The notes below the pieces were generated by a model, which had not been told where the DNA came from, did not search any database, and saw only the letters and a list, made by a program, of their open reading frames with translations. Position numbers and translations under genes: made by a program. DNA of 64,000 nt, taken from assembly GCA_965261085.1 (NCBI GenBank), contig OZ253442.1:544001-608000 (forward strand), in the 5' to 3' direction. The stretch is from a bacterium (GTDB taxonomy: Bacteria > UBA8248). Shown in pieces: positions 36,284-41,434 of this stretch (within the stretch, counting starts at the first letter, position 1; each line of letters starts with the position of its first letter).

Positions 36284-37240
36284 CTAGGAAGCCGCCGCAG
36301 CGGCCTTCTTGGCTTCTACCTGGGCTTCGAGATATTTCTCGGCCGCCACCGCCGCCGTCGTCGCATCGCCCGATGCGTTGGTGATCTGGCGAATCAACTG
36401 GCTCCTGCAATCACCGGCCACGAACAGGCCCGGAACGTTCGTCTCCATGTTCTGGTCCGTGAGGATGAAACCGACATCGTCTTTTTCTACGTGATCTTTT
36501 ATCAAATCCGTGTTCGGAATAAAACCGATGAAGACGAACAGGCCCGTGGCGTCGAGTTCTTTCGTCTCGCCTGTCTTCACGTTCTTGATGCGCAGCTTCT
36601 TCATCTCCCGGTCGTCACCCACGACTTCTTCGGCCACGTAATCGGTGATGATCTCCATTTTCGGATTATCGCGAATCTTGTCCACCAGGACCGCTTGGGC
36701 GCGGAACTGATCGCGGCGGTGGATGATGTAGACCTTCGTACCGTACTTCGTGAGGAACTGGCCTTCTTCCACGGCGCTGTTCCCGCCGCCCACGACGGTG
36801 ATGACCTCATCCTGAAAAAACGCGCCGTCGCACAGCGCGCAGTAGCTCACGCCTTTCCCTGCGTATTTCTCCTCGCCCGGAATGCCGAGCTTTCTCGGAT
36901 AGCCGCCGGGCGTATAGATCACCGCGCCACAGCGGCGCTCGCCCATGTCGGTGACGACGATGAAATCATCCCCGTCTTTTCTCACTTCCGAGACGTCTTC
37001 CATCTCGATCTTGAGGCCGAATTTCATGGCGTGATCGGTGAACTTGGCCGCCAACTCCTGGCCGCCGACCAGTTCGAAGCCCGGGTAGTCTTCCACGTGC
37101 TCGGTGTTCAGAATCTCACCGCCGGGCGCGAGTCTTTCATAGCAAACCACGTTCAGCTTCGAACGCGCCGTATAAAGGCCCGCCGTCAGCCCGGCCGGTC
37201 CCGCCCCGATGATGATGATTTCGAAATCCCGCTCAGCCAC
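36284..37240 (-). CDS. trxB: Thioredoxin-disulfide reductase
   Basis: IGAGPAGL, GVSYCALCDG, VGGGNSAVEE, HRRDQFRA, AGD. Confidence 0.95.
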   Translation of the reverse strand: MAERDFEIIIIGAGPAGLTAGLYTARSKLNVVCYERLAPGGEILNTEHVEDYPGFELVGGQELAAKFTDHAMKFGLKIEMEDVSEVRKDGDDFIVVTDMGERRCGAVIYTPGGYPRKLGIPGEEKYAGKGVSYCALCDGAFFQDEVITVVGGGNSAVEEGQFLTKYGTKVYIIHRRDQFRAQAVLVDKIRDNPKMEIITDYVAEEVVGDDREMKKLRIKNVKTGETKELDATGLFVFIGFIPNTDLIKDHVEKDDVGFILTDQNMETNVPGLFVAGDCRSQLIRQITNASGDATTAAVAAEKYLEAQVEAKKAAAAAS

Positions 37241-37294: not shown

Positions 37295-37801
37295 CTATCC
37301 GATCACGCCGGCGTACGCCTCATTTATGGTCATTCTGTTTTGAAGAAGCGGTAGAAGCAAATTCCTGAGTCTCCGCGCATATTTTTCTCCTCTCTCAGGC
37401 TCGGCTATATATATGCTGGCATGCCCGGGATTCTCATTCAGTGCGGTATCGATAACGACAAATGCCTTTTTGCCATCATCCGTACAAAGTAGACGCACCG
37501 ATAAGGTTTGTAATTTCGCCACACCCTCGTCCTTCCAAGGTTCGTCTTTTCTAGGGCGAGACAACCTATTTTCCACTGACTCCTTTACGGTATCCGCTGA
37601 AACGTACTTCATCCGATGAACGGAAAATCCTTTATTCCAAAGGTCCTTGGCTGGTATACCCGTCTCAAACACTTCCCCATCCTGGACATGCTGAGGGTTG
37701 AACATTTCTCGAAGAAGAAATTCCTCGTCCTCGACAATCCCGGGAGAAATGCCCGGCGTGGCGCTCTTTTCCTCGTCAAGATGGGGAGAAGGAGCTTGCA
37801 A
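37295..37801 (-). CDS. Hypothetical protein, AT-richer (possible ART/RES-like fold)
   Basis: 168-aa ORF with FLLR...GFSVHR...NPGHASI spacing. Confidence 0.6.
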   Translation of the reverse strand: MQAPSPHLDEEKSATPGISPGIVEDEEFLLREMFNPQHVQDGEVFETGIPAKDLWNKGFSVHRMKYVSADTVKESVENRLSRPRKDEPWKDEGVAKLQTLSVRLLCTDDGKKAFVVIDTALNENPGHASIYIAEPERGEKYARRLRNLLLPLLQNRMTINEAYAGVIG

Positions 37802-37808
37802 GACTGTT

Positions 37809-38204
37809 TCAGGCCGTGAACAGTTCTACGATTTCGGAGGGCAACCCCTCGGATGCCAGAATATCTTCACCGTCGATTGGGCGTCCATCTTTGCCGTGCG
37901 CAAAGTAAGTATAATTACGCGTTCCATAGAACCCGAGATCAACGTGAACGCCATCTTTTTTCCACAAAAAATTGACTTCCCCGTCATCAGCCAGCCCTAT
38001 ATAGGGCACGGGAATCGAGTCCAGCGGCAACTTGCGAATGAAATTTTTAGCATCTCTAAACGCCTGAGCAGTAGGCCACGTTGCATCAGGCCAACGCTCC
38101 TCCTTGGGAGTTTTTTTGAGCCTCTCCAATTGCGCGAGCAAGCCCCGATTCAATTTACCGATCCGATCCGGGCGGACAGCGGTATGTGGTTGAGAAGCCA
38201 TCAC
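37809..38204 (-). CDS. Hypothetical protein, AT-richer
   Basis: 131-aa ORF, P.P.IG...DGEVNFLW pattern; 7 bp from the next gene. Confidence 0.6.
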   Translation of the reverse strand: MMASQPHTAVRPDRIGKLNRGLLAQLERLKKTPKEERWPDATWPTAQAFRDAKNFIRKLPLDSIPVPYIGLADDGEVNFLWKKDGVHVDLGFYGTRNYTYFAHGKDGRPIDGEDILASEGLPSEIVELFTA

Positions 38205-38338
38205 GTACTCCCATGCGCTTCATCGCCATAGATGCGCTCTCCAAGAGAGCAATTGCACTCTATCAACAATCCACCGCGAAGAAAACAGTCCCCGGCATTG
38301 CTTATCGTCCACTCGTTTCCCCGAACTCAACCCGCCCC

Positions 38339-38638
38339 CTACTCGGTGGGTTCCAGGACAAACGCGCCGAATTCTTTCTCCAAGCGCAGTTTTTTTCCGT
38401 CGTGCTCGAAGACAGAGCCTGGCGGGGTATCCTCATCCACCGGAACGTACTCCCCGCAAAGGGGACACGAAACCATCTGCACGATGGTGAGAACCTCCGC
38501 CCCTTCCGCCCGGCCCAGGCGGAACCTGACCCCCGCTCAGTTGCCGCAATCGATCAGGTCGCGCATTTTCGCATCCCACGGGATGGGTATGCGCTGCCCA
38601 CAGCCGGGACAGGCGAGAGTTCTGCGGTTTTCGCTCAC
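38339..38638 (-). CDS. Putative selenoprotein: tandem LysW-like zinc-ribbon protein with CxxU (99 aa)
   Basis: GTG start overlaps the upstream stop (GTGA). Translation MSENRRTLACPGCGQRIPIPWDAKMRDLIDCGN-TGA-AGVRFRL...VSCPLCGEYVPV...FEHDGKKLRLEKEFGAFVLEPTE*. TGA at 38539-38537 completes CxxC; hairpin follows. Confidence 0.75.
38504..38524 (-). promoter_or_regulatory. Putative bacterial SECIS hairpin (zinc-ribbon gene)
   Basis: UUCCGCCUG-GGC-CGGGCGGAA, 9-bp stem starting 12 nt after the in-frame UGA, G-leading apical loop. Confidence 0.65.
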
Positions 38639-38877
38639 GCGGCGAGCCCCAGCAGCGCCTCAAGCTTCGCCCTATCGAAGCCCACCACCTTCTCCTCGCC
38701 GATGAAAATCACGGGCGTCGCCCGCATGCTCGCCCTCTGGAACAACTCCTCCAGGGCTTCTTCGTCCTGATCCACGAGTTTTTCCGTATACGCCACGCCA
38801 TGATGGGAAAGAAACTCTTTCACCGCCTTACACGGCGCTCAGAACGTGGAGGAATAAACCGTCACCTCTTTCGACAT
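38635..38877 (-). CDS. Putative selenocysteine-containing glutaredoxin/NrdH-like protein (UxxC, 80 aa)
   Basis: AAGGGAG RBS, ATG 38877: MSKEVTVYSSTF-TGA-APCKAVKEFLSHHGV...RATPVIFIGEEKVVGFD. TGA (38841-38839) sits at the first Cys of the redox motif; cis-Pro TP and GFD motifs present. Confidence 0.88.
38795..38838 (-). promoter_or_regulatory. Putative bacterial SECIS hairpin (glutaredoxin gene)
   Basis: Lower stem GCGCCGUG/CAUGGCGU, upper stem GAAAG/CUUUC, apical loop AGUUU beginning 22 nt after the UGA. Confidence 0.6.
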
Positions 38878-38956
38878 CGGATATCTCCCTTGAAACCGGC
38901 ATGAGCCGCCCCGGCGGCAGGGGCGTCGCTCATTTTATCTCAAATGCAACTCTACG

Positions 38957-40327
38957 CTATCCGGGCGTGTTCACTCGCTCGAGCAGGGCGGCCAACTCTT
39001 TGACCCGGATAGAATCGAGCCTCGATACGGCGTCCACGATCTCCGCCCGCAAGGAGGCGTCCGTGTGCGCTTCGCTCAGGGCCTCGAACTTCTCGTTCAC
39101 CGTCGTCCAGCTCATCGGGGTGGAGAAATGCCCCTCCCAGGTGGGCTTGTCCAGCTTGTGGACGGTGCCGTCTTTTAACGTGATGGTGATCAGCACGGGC
39201 GACTGCGCGGGGTACCTGGCCGTCATCTCATCGGAATTGGTGGTGCGCACTTTCTTTAAGAGCGTCTGCACGTCGTCCGCGCGGATTCTCTCTTCCTCGT
39301 ACTGGGCGGGCAGGACCTGCTCGTCGATGATGGCCGCCGAGAGCACGTAGGGCAGGCTGTGGTCCGCCGTCTCCTTGTTCAGCACGTGCTCGCGCGCGCC
39401 CGCCTTGCCCTCGCCCATGATGAAATAGGCGCGCTCATAGATTCCGATCTCGATGTCTTCGATGTCCTCAGGACTGAAGCCGTGTTCTCGCTTCATGTCG
39501 ATGACGCCCTCGATGGCCGTCTGGGAGTGAAGCCCCGCGTTGTAGCGCTTCACGCTGATCTCGAGCATCTTGCGAAGCCCTGTGTCCGACCAGTCGACCT
39601 CGAATTCTCCCGTCACGGACTCGAAAACGCCCAGGGGGCCCTCGATCAACCGGAGCGGCCCCGTCACACCGCGCATGGCCAGAAACGTCGAGTGCACCCC
39701 GCTGTGCCCGCCGGCCGCATAGGCGAAGCCCTTCCAGTGGGAGAGTTCGCCCGTGCGCGTGATGAGCAGTGGGTTCTGGCGCACGCCGCTGAGAGCGATG
39801 GCGTTGGCCGTCCTCTCGGCGTCCAGCCCTAGAGCGCGCGAGGCGCCCGCCGCCACGGCGTAGGCCCCCGCCATGGGCTGGTCGAACCCTCTTTTCTCAT
39901 AGGGCGCGCTGTCGCACAGGCGGCACTGCACCTCATACGCCAGGGCGAGGGCCGTCATGAACTCCGCTCCGCTCGCGTCCGCGTATTCGGCCGCCGCCAT
40001 CACGCTGCCCGCGTTGTCGCTCGGGTGCGAGGTGGCGAGCTTCCCCATGAAGCCGTCGTTGAAATCGAGATAGCGGATCAGCGAGGTGTTGTAGAACGCG
40101 GCGCTATCGGGCGCGCTCTTGCCGCCCCCGATGAGCGTGCAATGCGCCGCGCCGCCGAAATCATCCGCCTGCTCGCGCAGGTAGCGGACGGGGCCTTCGC
40201 CCAGCGAACCGATGGCGCAGCCGATGGTGTCGACCATGAGCATTTTTAGCTGCCCGCGCATCTCGTCCGAGAGATCATCGAAACTGCTGTTCGCGGCGAA
40301 CGCCGCAATCTGTTCCACAATCGTCAT
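38957..40327 (-). CDS. MmgE/PrpD family protein (2-methylcitrate dehydratase-like)
   Basis: DTIGCAIG, RYLDFND, HPSDN, RTGELSHWKG, KETADHSLPY. Confidence 0.9.
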   Translation of the reverse strand: MTIVEQIAAFAANSSFDDLSDEMRGQLKMLMVDTIGCAIGSLGEGPVRYLREQADDFGGAAHCTLIGGGKSAPDSAAFYNTSLIRYLDFNDGFMGKLATSHPSDNAGSVMAAAEYADASGAEFMTALALAYEVQCRLCDSAPYEKRGFDQPMAGAYAVAAGASRALGLDAERTANAIALSGVRQNPLLITRTGELSHWKGFAYAAGGHSGVHSTFLAMRGVTGPLRLIEGPLGVFESVTGEFEVDWSDTGLRKMLEISVKRYNAGLHSQTAIEGVIDMKREHGFSPEDIEDIEIGIYERAYFIMGEGKAGAREHVLNKETADHSLPYVLSAAIIDEQVLPAQYEEERIRADDVQTLLKKVRTTNSDEMTARYPAQSPVLITITLKDGTVHKLDKPTWEGHFSTPMSWTTVNEKFEALSEAHTDASLRAEIVDAVSRLDSIRVKELAALLERVNTPG

Positions 40328-40414: not shown

Positions 40415-41434
40415 CTAGCCGCCGTTCAGCTTTCTGTACGCTTTCTGCATGATGAGCGCGTCGTATTCGAGCGCCGGACTCTCGCACACCACCCGGCCTT
40501 CGGCGCCGAAATCGATGAGCGCGCGGAATAGGTCCTTGTAATTCATGTCCGACTCATCGAGTTCCAGATGATGCGCCTCGCCCTTGTCCGAAAACGCGAT
40601 GCCCGAGAGGTGGATGTGCAGGGTTTTGAGAACGTCATCGCCCATCCTGTTCTTCAGCAGTTCGAGCTGGGCGCCGAACTCATCGTAGGTGTTGTGCGCC
40701 CCCGCCGAGCGCGCGTGAATGTGCGAAAAATCTATCGTGAAGCCGACGTTCTTGCCCCTGAGCGCGCCGCCCATGTCGGCTATCTCCTCGAGCGAGCCGA
40801 ACTGCGTGCCCTTGCCCGTCGTCTCGGGATCCAGGCGAACCGCACAGCCCTCCTCATCCAGGATGTCGGCGAGCTCTCCTATCTGGCTGCAGATGAAGTC
40901 GTAGACCTCTTTCGGGTCTCGTTTCTGGTAAAACCCGGGGTGGAAACACGCCCCGTCGCCGCCGCACTTCGCCAGGGCGCGCGCGGTGTCCAGCACGCGC
41001 TTACGGCTCGCCGCCACCTTTTCTTCTTCCAGCGAATAGAGGTTCACGTAATAGGGCCCGTGCGCGGTGATGTGAACGCCCGTCTCCGCCTGGGCGGCCC
41101 TCACCTCCTCGCACGTCTCCTCCCTGATGCGCACGCCGTGGACGAACTCCATCTCGTAGACGCCAAGGCCCAGCTCGTGCAGCCTGCGCACCGCCGCCGG
41201 GTGGGTCTGCGGCTTGGCCGAATGCGGAACCCCGCCCGTGCCGAAAAATATCCGGTCCGCCCGCTTGGGTTTCGCGTTCACGCTCAAGAGGCCGTCATAG
41301 GTTCTGCCTTTTGGTTTTTCCTTGGGAACCCCCGGGGCCCAGCCGCGAACGTCCGCTTTAGGCTTCGCCGCTTTTTTGGGGGCCGGTTTCTTTTTGGCCG
41401 CGGCTTTCGGGGCCGCCTCTTTCTTTTCCGGCAC
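40415..41434 (-). CDS. nfo: Endonuclease IV-like (AP endonuclease 2 TIM barrel) with Lys/Ala/Pro-rich N-terminus
   Basis: FGTGG.P, EMEFVHGV, TAHGPYYVNL, FHPGFY, PETTGK..QFGSLEE, IDFSHIHAR, HIHLSGI, CESP. Confidence 0.8.
   Translation of the reverse strand: MPEKKEAAPKAAAKKKPAPKKAAKPKADVRGWAPGVPKEKPKGRTYDGLLSVNAKPKRADRIFFGTGGVPHSAKPQTHPAAVRRLHELGLGVYEMEFVHGVRIREETCEEVRAAQAETGVHITAHGPYYVNLYSLEEEKVAASRKRVLDTARALAKCGGDGACFHPGFYQKRDPKEVYDFICSQIGELADILDEEGCAVRLDPETTGKGTQFGSLEEIADMGGALRGKNVGFTIDFSHIHARSAGAHNTYDEFGAQLELLKNRMGDDVLKTLHIHLSGIAFSDKGEAHHLELDESDMNYKDLFRALIDFGAEGRVVCESPALEYDALIMQKAYRKLNGG

Follow-up and report, generated by a model that had tools for sequence, protein, structure and literature searches.

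The window analysed here is a stretch of 64,000 nucleotides from a bacterium of the GTDB lineage UBA8248 (assembly GCA_965261085.1, contig OZ253442.1, positions 544,001 to 608,000 of the forward strand; positions below count from its first letter). On its minus strand, at 38339-38638, it carries a small gene for a tandem zinc-ribbon protein, called here the ribbon gene. This gene very probably represents a new selenoprotein family on the fold of the amino-group carrier LysW, and it lies within a conserved selenium-dependent two-gene module together with a gene for a glutaredoxin-like selenoprotein. The first-pass annotation had proposed a new selenoprotein at this position, and the proposal is supported by a complete selenocysteine (Sec, U) machinery in the genome, by interchange of Sec and cysteine among homologues, by purifying selection after the in-frame TGA and by hairpins resembling the selenocysteine insertion sequence (SECIS).

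The ribbon gene comprises 99 codons followed by TAG, as judged from its translation and from homologues in the genus. Its GTG start codon (38636-38638) overlaps the TGA stop codon of the upstream gene (38635-38637) in a GTGA arrangement. The frame is interrupted only once, by a TGA at codon 34 (site 2, minus strand, 38537-38539), which falls within the motif C10-P-G-C13-x17-C31-G-N-U34 and, read as Sec, would provide the fourth ligand of ribbon 1. This ribbon (C-P-G-C ... C-G-N-U) was delimited on a 19-sequence alignment to codons 10-34 (minus strand, 38537-38611), and its second ligand is codon 13 (site 1, minus strand, 38600-38602), which is TGT and encodes cysteine in the window. Ribbon 2 (codons 58-81, minus strand, 38396-38467) is spelled C58-P-L-C61-G ... 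F-E-H79-D-G and aligns to the solved LysW. The 99-codon frame, the GTGA coupling, the TGA codon in CPGC-x17-CGN and the second repeat had all been described at first pass and are present in the minus-strand translation, whereas the strand itself, the Sec-containing glutaredoxin, the Sec column at codon 13 and the mercury context of the locus had been missed. The plus-strand reading of 38339-38638 was rejected, as it gives a meaningless translation. A scan for promoters and terminators was negative both for promoter-like sites and for a minus-strand terminator behind the ribbon gene.

The machinery for Sec insertion is complete in the window genome, designated G000. The genes selA (579 bits), selB (384 bits, adjoining selA) and selD (336 bits) as well as tRNA-Sec, the product of selC (75.9 bits), were all found above curated cut-offs. 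The selD gene (C1:3459-4421, locus L011) itself has one in-frame TGA and is of the Sec-containing type.

Homologues of the ribbon protein were collected by a six-frame search which reads through stop codons. The whole frame was recovered in 19 of 41 genomes, consisting of relatives plus G000, and within the genus the full frame with TGA is found in 12 of the 22 other genomes, with an identity of 70-90% across residues 1-99. At columns 13 and 34, G000 has C/U, 5 relatives have U/C, 8 have U/U and 5 more distant ones have C/C. Codon 13 is TGA in 12 of 13 genus loci and also in other lineages. A second sweep, centred on a Methylomirabilota genome, detected the family in 57 of 201 genomes, or in 54 of 198 once three genomes flagged as unpublished are removed, and the 28 published loci counted there show C/C in 12, C/U in 12, U/C in 1 and U/U in 3 cases. 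Both columns are thus occupied by U or C in every homologue, in all four combinations, and the counts of the two sweeps indicate that Sec at each column recurs in two phyla. A single third-base change converts TGA into TGT or TGC, and the homologues in Cys form are contiguous single proteins. The matches of the six-frame search are full length.

The part of the frame behind the TGA is under clear constraint. The median ratio of nonsynonymous to synonymous substitution rates (dN/dS) over 78 pairs of genus sequences comes to 0.24 before the TGA (codons 7-33) and to 0.17 behind it (codons 35-99), with a dS of 0.35-1.0 between G000 and the other genus sequences. The value of 0.17 after the TGA indicates that the downstream part is maintained as protein. 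TGA34 is also unchanged in contigs assembled from runs X13, X16, X17 and X5, which belong to three studies and represent three metatranscriptome libraries (two studies) and one independent DNA run. Conservation of the codon in independent runs excludes a sequencing error or a strain-private nonsense mutation, both of which had been considered at first pass. In X16, X17 and X5 position 38600 is changed from A to T, making codon 13 TGA on the minus strand and giving a U/U variant. On the basis of these sequence comparisons, the ribbon gene is very probably a genuine selenoprotein gene.

The evidence from SECIS-like hairpins is mixed. The 9-bp hairpin noticed at first pass is present on the minus strand at 38504-38524 and starts 12 nt after UGA34, with the sequence UUCCGCCUG-GGC-CGGGCGGAA and a GGC loop. 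With a z of -0.8 to -1.2 it is ordinary for this G+C-rich sequence when taken singly, and the single-sequence folding z-scores, -0.8 to -1.4, are uninformative. Across the 13 genus sequences 94.9% of its cells are paired, compared with 44-66% in slid controls. The strongest support comes from the site-2 hairpins of Methylomirabilota, where 15 of 15 Sec forms have a stem of 5-7 bp with a CGGGU-type loop located 9-11 nt after the UGA. The columns concerned are paired in 96 of 105 cells in Sec forms and in 49 of 91 cells in Cys forms. In the formal count 90.8% are paired against 80.0% in shuffles, and covariation amounts to 0.289 against 0.122 in shuffles, with 0 of 500 shuffles reaching either observed value; one of the pairs switches between G-C (8 sequences) and C-G (6 sequences) and is unpaired in none. 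At site 1, hairpins begin 13-14 nt after the UGA in three lineages which encode different peptides at this place (CGUCC-CGUG-GGACG, CCGUACC-GGCC-GGUACGG and GAUCCC-GGCC-GGGAUC), and the last of them is found in 4 of 4 Methylomirabilota site-1 Sec forms. The glutaredoxin-like gene possesses a SECIS-like element of its own with the core hairpin GAAAGA-GUU-UCUUUC (minus strand, 38807-38821), and this hairpin, of the GAAAGAG-UUU-CUUUC type, is kept in loci of other phyla with paired base changes.

Several observations on the hairpins and on expression limit this evidence. The genus hairpin varies too little for covariation, showing one compensatory pair at a level attained by 75 of 500 shuffles. 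In Rfam, the region 38200-39000 matched no SECIS family at E <= 10. Hairpin energy is not separated between Sec and Cys forms at site 1 (p 0.66), and the difference at site 2 (p 0.003) rests on one genus. One RNA-library contig (38423-38844) spans the glutaredoxin and ribbon genes, which is no proof of transcription, and gaps in contig cover carry no meaning. The sole Rfam match, a viral internal ribosome entry site, was rejected as a chance match (19.4 bits versus 100).

The fold of the ribbon protein was predicted with AF2 from the 19-sequence alignment. The model is all-beta, with a predicted local distance difference test score (pLDDT) of 87.5 and a predicted template modelling score (pTM) of 0.69. 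Among PDB structures the model matches only the fold of LysW from its complex with ArgX (3vpb_E; probability 1.00, template modelling score 0.74 on the target), superposed with a root-mean-square deviation of 1.2 A over 47 columns. A sequence profile search of the PDB reached the same chain with E 6.1e-5 over profile positions 54-94, which correspond to ribbon 2, and the alignment pairs CPxC and H-x-C-G. The best matches among domain families are again of LysW type, although below the cut-offs (Pfam Zn_ribbon_LysW PF21344, 25.2 bits, cut-off 27; NCBIfam carrier_LysW_Arch NF041070, 41.5 bits, cut-off 75), so the tandem LysW-like ribbon proposed at first pass is borne out. Every homologue seen has C or U at each of the four ligand columns of ribbon 1. 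In ribbon 2 the last two ligands are variable, being HD in the window and CD, HC or CC elsewhere, and in one subclade the site of ribbon 2 is degenerate with its second Cys missing. This difference marks ribbon 1 as the conserved chemical site of the protein. In the NCBIfam scan at E <= 0.1 the models FmdB TIGR02605, NF041197, NF041115 and NF045648 were not matched by the ribbon protein, and rubredoxin is not among the 12 Pfam families matched at E <= 0.1. The ribbon profile was also matched in 4-7 separate stretches by four long proteins of 253-1052 aa (P0059, P0063, P0084 and P0088), which indicates that LysW-like ribbons occur as multi-repeat arrays too.

The second member of the module is the upstream gene, located on the minus strand at 38635-38877 and coupled to the ribbon gene. 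It encodes a glutaredoxin-like protein with the active site F-U-A-P-C, where U is specified by an in-frame TGA (minus strand, 38839-38841). The protein matches the Pfam Glutaredoxin family with 56.8 bits (cut-off 22.9), and its best NCBIfam match is the YruB family TIGR02196 with 78.5 bits, below the cut-off of 88.55. The association of the two genes is very tight. The glutaredoxin-like gene is immediately upstream of the ribbon gene in 19 of 19 loci of the first sweep and adjacent in 26 of 28 loci of the pattern scan, the two exceptions being a contig end and a distance of 1.1 kb, and its active site carries U (UxxC) in all 38 unique loci where it is readable. Clustering of the 1.5-4 kb flanks gave glutaredoxin, mer-type genes, thioredoxin reductase and a PrpD-like gene as conserved neighbours. 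The thioredoxin-disulfide reductase gene of the window (minus strand, 36284-37240; TIGR01292, 362.5 bits, cut-off 343.45) lies behind the pair in 12 of the 13 genus loci, with or without two intervening open reading frames (ORFs). It is possible that this enzyme is the electron source of the pair, or it may be merely a syntenic neighbour.

Outside the genus the pair is situated in a mercury-gene context. In Methylomirabilota and in some metagenome-assembled genomes (MAGs) labelled Nitrospinota, it lies between MerB-like lyases and importers of the MerT/MerE/MerF type. The exemplar neighbours of loci outside the genus score above the Pfam cut-offs for MerB (59.9 and 100.4 bits), MerE (35.1 and 44.2 bits) and MerF (71.4 bits; in NCBIfam 93.4 bits, cut-off 50). 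By tblastn, 25 of the 26 loci outside the genus and all 28 Methylomirabilota loci have a mer-type neighbour. One MerB-like neighbour has SaoL as its best match, with 69.9 bits at a cut-off of 140. MerA above the cut-off was found in 0 of 5 genomes with mer context, the best score being 411 bits against 454; these are MAGs, in which absence is unproven. In a family-level relative (locus L049) the order is glutaredoxin, ribbon gene with Sec at site 1, MerR-like, MerT-like, MerE, thioredoxin reductase, orf182 and orf390. The window genus has the same reductase block minus the mer genes. As the mer genes of L049 stand between the pair and the reductase block, the adjacency of the reductase in the genus may be plain synteny.

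From this context we suggest, with moderate confidence, that ribbon 1 is a Sec/Cys exchange site for soft metals of the mercury type which works together with the Sec-glutaredoxin. Ribbon 1 would then not be a purely structural zinc site but a reactive Cys/Sec site binding a thiophilic metal ion, which in the mer-type clusters of relatives would be Hg(II). The metal would be handed on by fast ligand exchange between selenolates or thiolates of the ribbon protein and the partner Sec-glutaredoxin, which may also re-reduce Se-S or Se-Se bonds formed in the ribbon protein. Sec is costly, and its repeated gain and loss at ligand positions suggests a chemical rather than a structural role for them. 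MerP and NmerA are metal hand-off domains of the mer pathway, and the ribbon protein may play, with another fold, a role like that of MerP or of the metal-binding domain at the N-terminus of MerA. In the window genus, where mer genes are gone, the pair may serve a general protection of soft-metal or selenol/thiol type. Sec in heavy-metal sites has precedent in families listed in NCBIfam and in Table 1 of PMC13188914 (NF041115, UxxU; MerT, C/SxxU). Between the metal ligand and the redox switch offered at first pass we infer rather than observe, and the mer-type context favours the metal ligand. A further step, which we regard as tentative, is that cytoplasmic Hg(II) is handled by a route independent of MerA, with the pair at its core. 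Selenolate exchange would allow the CxxU...CxxU site to accept Hg(II) coming from MerB-like lyases or MerT/E/F importers, and processing or release of the metal would fall to the Sec-glutaredoxin.

Both proposals have to be set against several opposing points. The site equivalent to ribbon 1 in LysW is a structural zinc site. A mer-type neighbour is found in 0 of 13 genus loci, and G000, which is 96% complete, has no matches to MerE, MerB or MerT and no MerA above the cut-off, so that the mercury link derives from relatives only. The MerT-like and MerR-like neighbours score under their family cut-offs. The tblastn counts of mer-type neighbours were obtained with queries drawn from these very loci, which are kin to one another, and the two locus sets share members.

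Further genes near the pair were noted in other loci. A fused tandem MerR-MerR-HMA protein of 394 aa is encoded directly after the pair in L057 (L057:673-4319), next to an ORF of 821 aa with an HMA-like CxxC at its start, which was judged by eye to be a P-type ATPase. In L066 (L066:5212-5988), about 1.2 kb downstream of the pair, an ORF for a small ArsR-like regulator and a glyoxalase-like ORF are present, both judged by eye from their N-termini. Redoxin-like ORFs beside the pair in L053 (around 1501) and L068 (around 4586) contain in-frame TGA codons in the motifs ...A-T-W-U-P-H-C... and ...G-H-W-U-P-Y-C..., which suggests more selenoproteins of thiol-disulfide oxidoreductase type in the same clusters.

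The main rival to a soft-metal exchange site is a pure redox relay, which we judge to be rather unlikely. Ribbon 1 would cycle between a reduced and a selenenylsulfide or diselenide form, electrons would pass from NADPH through thioredoxin reductase and the Sec-glutaredoxin to the ribbon protein and then to a target, and the mer association would merely reflect thiol repair under metal stress. The reductase behind the pair in almost all genus loci fits such a chain, and so does the window genome with its lack of mer genes. The YruB glutaredoxin-like family is the top NCBIfam match of the partner, and the founder of this family, from Clostridium pasteurianum, is reportedly reduced by an enzyme resembling thioredoxin reductase. 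Sec in CxxU and UxxC motifs is, moreover, typical of redox proteins according to section 7 of PMC13188914. Set against this, the mer-type genes of L049 split the pair from the reductase, and the conserved reductase-orf182-orf390 block may reflect plain synteny. Methylomirabilota loci have no adjacent reductase, the four ligands are arranged as in a metal site of the LysW fold, and outside the genus nearly every locus shows the mer association.

A role as metal-sensing or regulatory adaptor, in which the protein, instead of trafficking Hg or another metal, would bind it in order to modulate a regulator, a transporter or the glutaredoxin, appears improbable. The ribbon protein is small and without catalytic domain, MerR-family genes adjoin it in several loci, and the known role of the LysW fold is in protein recognition, for which the title of the 3vpb complex is the only backing here. 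Yet the start/stop overlap in the window genus suggests equimolar synthesis of the two proteins, which is not usually expected of a regulator, the presence of Sec at two ligand positions argues for reactivity, and the Pfam and NCBIfam scans of the ribbon protein found no DNA-binding or signalling domain.

It is very improbable that the gene is not a selenoprotein gene and encodes a 33-residue peptide, followed by a separate small gene or a decaying pseudogene. Public gene calls might be taken to favour this, as a word-indexed protein search retrieved just 12 fragments of 63-75 aa, which begin after one of the TGA codons and are named only 'hypothetical protein'. Among 1.84 billion cluster representatives 91 matches to the ribbon profile were obtained, many of them with the same kind of truncation. 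The first-pass expectation that gene callers miss the full gene therefore held. The single hairpin of the window, statistically ordinary and without Rfam match, points the same way. However, in G000 no start codon is present between TGA34 and codon 53 from which a separate downstream product could begin, and the modelled ribbon fold requires residues from both sides of the TGA. The contiguous Cys-form homologues, the repeated occurrence, in two phyla, of TGA in place of Cys at columns 13 and 34, the low dN/dS on both sides and the complete Sec machinery also stand against it.

A true amino-group carrier of LysW/ArgW type for lysine or arginine biosynthesis is the least credible alternative: the fold and the top Pfam and NCBIfam matches are those of LysW and 12 of 13 genus proteins end in Glu, but the scores stay under the cut-offs, the protein is built of two ribbons in tandem, its gene adjoins glutaredoxin and mer-type genes instead of ATP-grasp or kinase genes, and the tail is different. 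LysW/ArgW carriers possess a flexible acidic C-terminal tail of EDWGE type with a conserved terminal Glu. The ribbon proteins end in ...LEPTE in the genus and in ...LEAV, ...LEPI or ...AAE plus variable extensions elsewhere, with no EDWGE-type tail and no conservation of the C-terminus outside the genus, in agreement with the first-pass remark that a carrier tail is lacking. No LysX/ArgX ligase and no LysZ/Y/J/K gene was found in the 1.5-4 kb flanks, where the search was confined to these flanks and no genome-wide LysX search was made. The ribbon protein is thus of LysW fold, but fails the tests for membership in the carrier family.

The family shows similarity to several known systems without coinciding with any of them. 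With LysW/ArgW (PF21344, NF041070, 3vpb_E) it shares the small zinc-ribbon fold and the ligand spacing CPxCG ... C/H-x-C-G, and it differs in its tandem arrangement (99 aa), in Sec at ligand positions and in its Sec-glutaredoxin and mer neighbours. FmdB-family proteins (TIGR02605, UxxU, 2 Sec; PMC13188914 Table 1) are likewise small zinc ribbons with two predicted ligand Sec and provide a precedent for Sec in a zinc ribbon, but both Sec belong to one knuckle in FmdB, while in the ribbon family they take the second position of each of two knuckles (CxxU...CxxU); this comparison uses the Table 1 description of FmdB and the NCBIfam scan, in which its model was not matched. HMA-type proteins and MerT selenoproteins (NF041115, UxxU; NF045683; PF02411, C/SxxU) also have Sec in place of Cys in a CxxC-type soft-metal site within a mercury or heavy-metal context, and together with the hand-off domains MerP and NmerA they would be the closest functional analogy. 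Their folds are unrelated (ferredoxin-like or membrane helix versus zinc ribbon), and the ribbon protein misses their models. Glutaredoxin-like selenoproteins (PF00462, UxxC; TIGR02196), which are experimentally verified according to Table 1 of PMC13188914, are the kind of the partner and not of the ribbon protein.

The SAO (selenocysteine-assisted organometallic) locus described in a preprint by Haft and Gwadz (10.1101/2022.07.06.499078) is comparable in composition, as it also contains a MerB-like lyase, a thioredoxin-fold selenoprotein and metal-binding proteins rich in Cys and Sec. Its nine genes (SaoA, P, B, X, E, C, T, D and L) include no zinc ribbon, and the words zinc, ribbon and LysW are absent from the preprint text. 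SAO belongs to anaerobes and is linked to ABC transporters in that text, whereas the ribbon pair of relatives is accompanied by importers of MerT/E/F type. In the same text of 2022 its authors stated that cataloguing had turned up no mercury-resistance selenoprotein.

The first-pass impression that the protein is not among the known families agrees with the available catalogues. Table 1 of the May 2026 review PMC13188914, with 119 families, has no LysW-like or tandem-ribbon entry; the nearest ones are the FmdB zinc ribbon, the dual CXXC motif small protein NF041197, the HMA-type UxxU and the MerT C/SxxU families. In NCBIfam release 20 no model, dedicated or other, is reached by the ribbon protein, and in Pfam likewise none above the cut-off. 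In the passages searched, BSepDB and the mer-gene survey PMC8261052 do not mention the pair, and no description of an obligate pairing of Sec-glutaredoxin and ribbon protein was found in the literature searched, supplements being outside its scope.

The family shows that a selenoprotein on a LysW-type ribbon fold can hold two predicted Sec residues in one four-ligand site. As annotation truncates or misses the module of glutaredoxin and ribbon protein, the selenoproteomes of Nitrospinota-labelled genomes and of Methylomirabilota are under-counted. The survey PMC8261052 raises the question of how organisms with MerB but without MerA handle Hg(II). The placement of the pair beside genes of MerB, MerT, MerE and MerF type without recognisable MerA makes it a testable candidate for this function. 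If the MerA-independent route is true, it would be the first selenoprotein module of mercury detoxification and would explain how MerB-only organisms cope with the Hg(II) released by MerB.

The remaining neighbours in the window are two ORFs of 168 and 131 aa, located between the ribbon gene and the reductase (minus strand, 37295-38204), and two genes upstream of the pair. The two ORFs gave no match in Pfam, NCBIfam, PADLOC or PHROGs. Eight of the 13 genus loci contain them and 5 do not; four of the latter (L028, L032, L033 and L035) have the reductase at about +420 nt, and the fifth (L037) has neither the ORFs nor the reductase within its flank. Their distribution resembles that of an inserted cassette, at the position which merR/merT/merE-like genes occupy in L049. 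Upstream, a gene of the MmgE/PrpD family (minus strand, 38957-40327) has both Pfam domains above the cut-off, and its protein scores far below the equivalog cut-offs for 2-methylcitrate dehydratase. It is followed further upstream by a gene for a xylose-isomerase-like TIM-barrel protein (minus strand, 40415-41434), and both genes are found in synteny throughout the genus.

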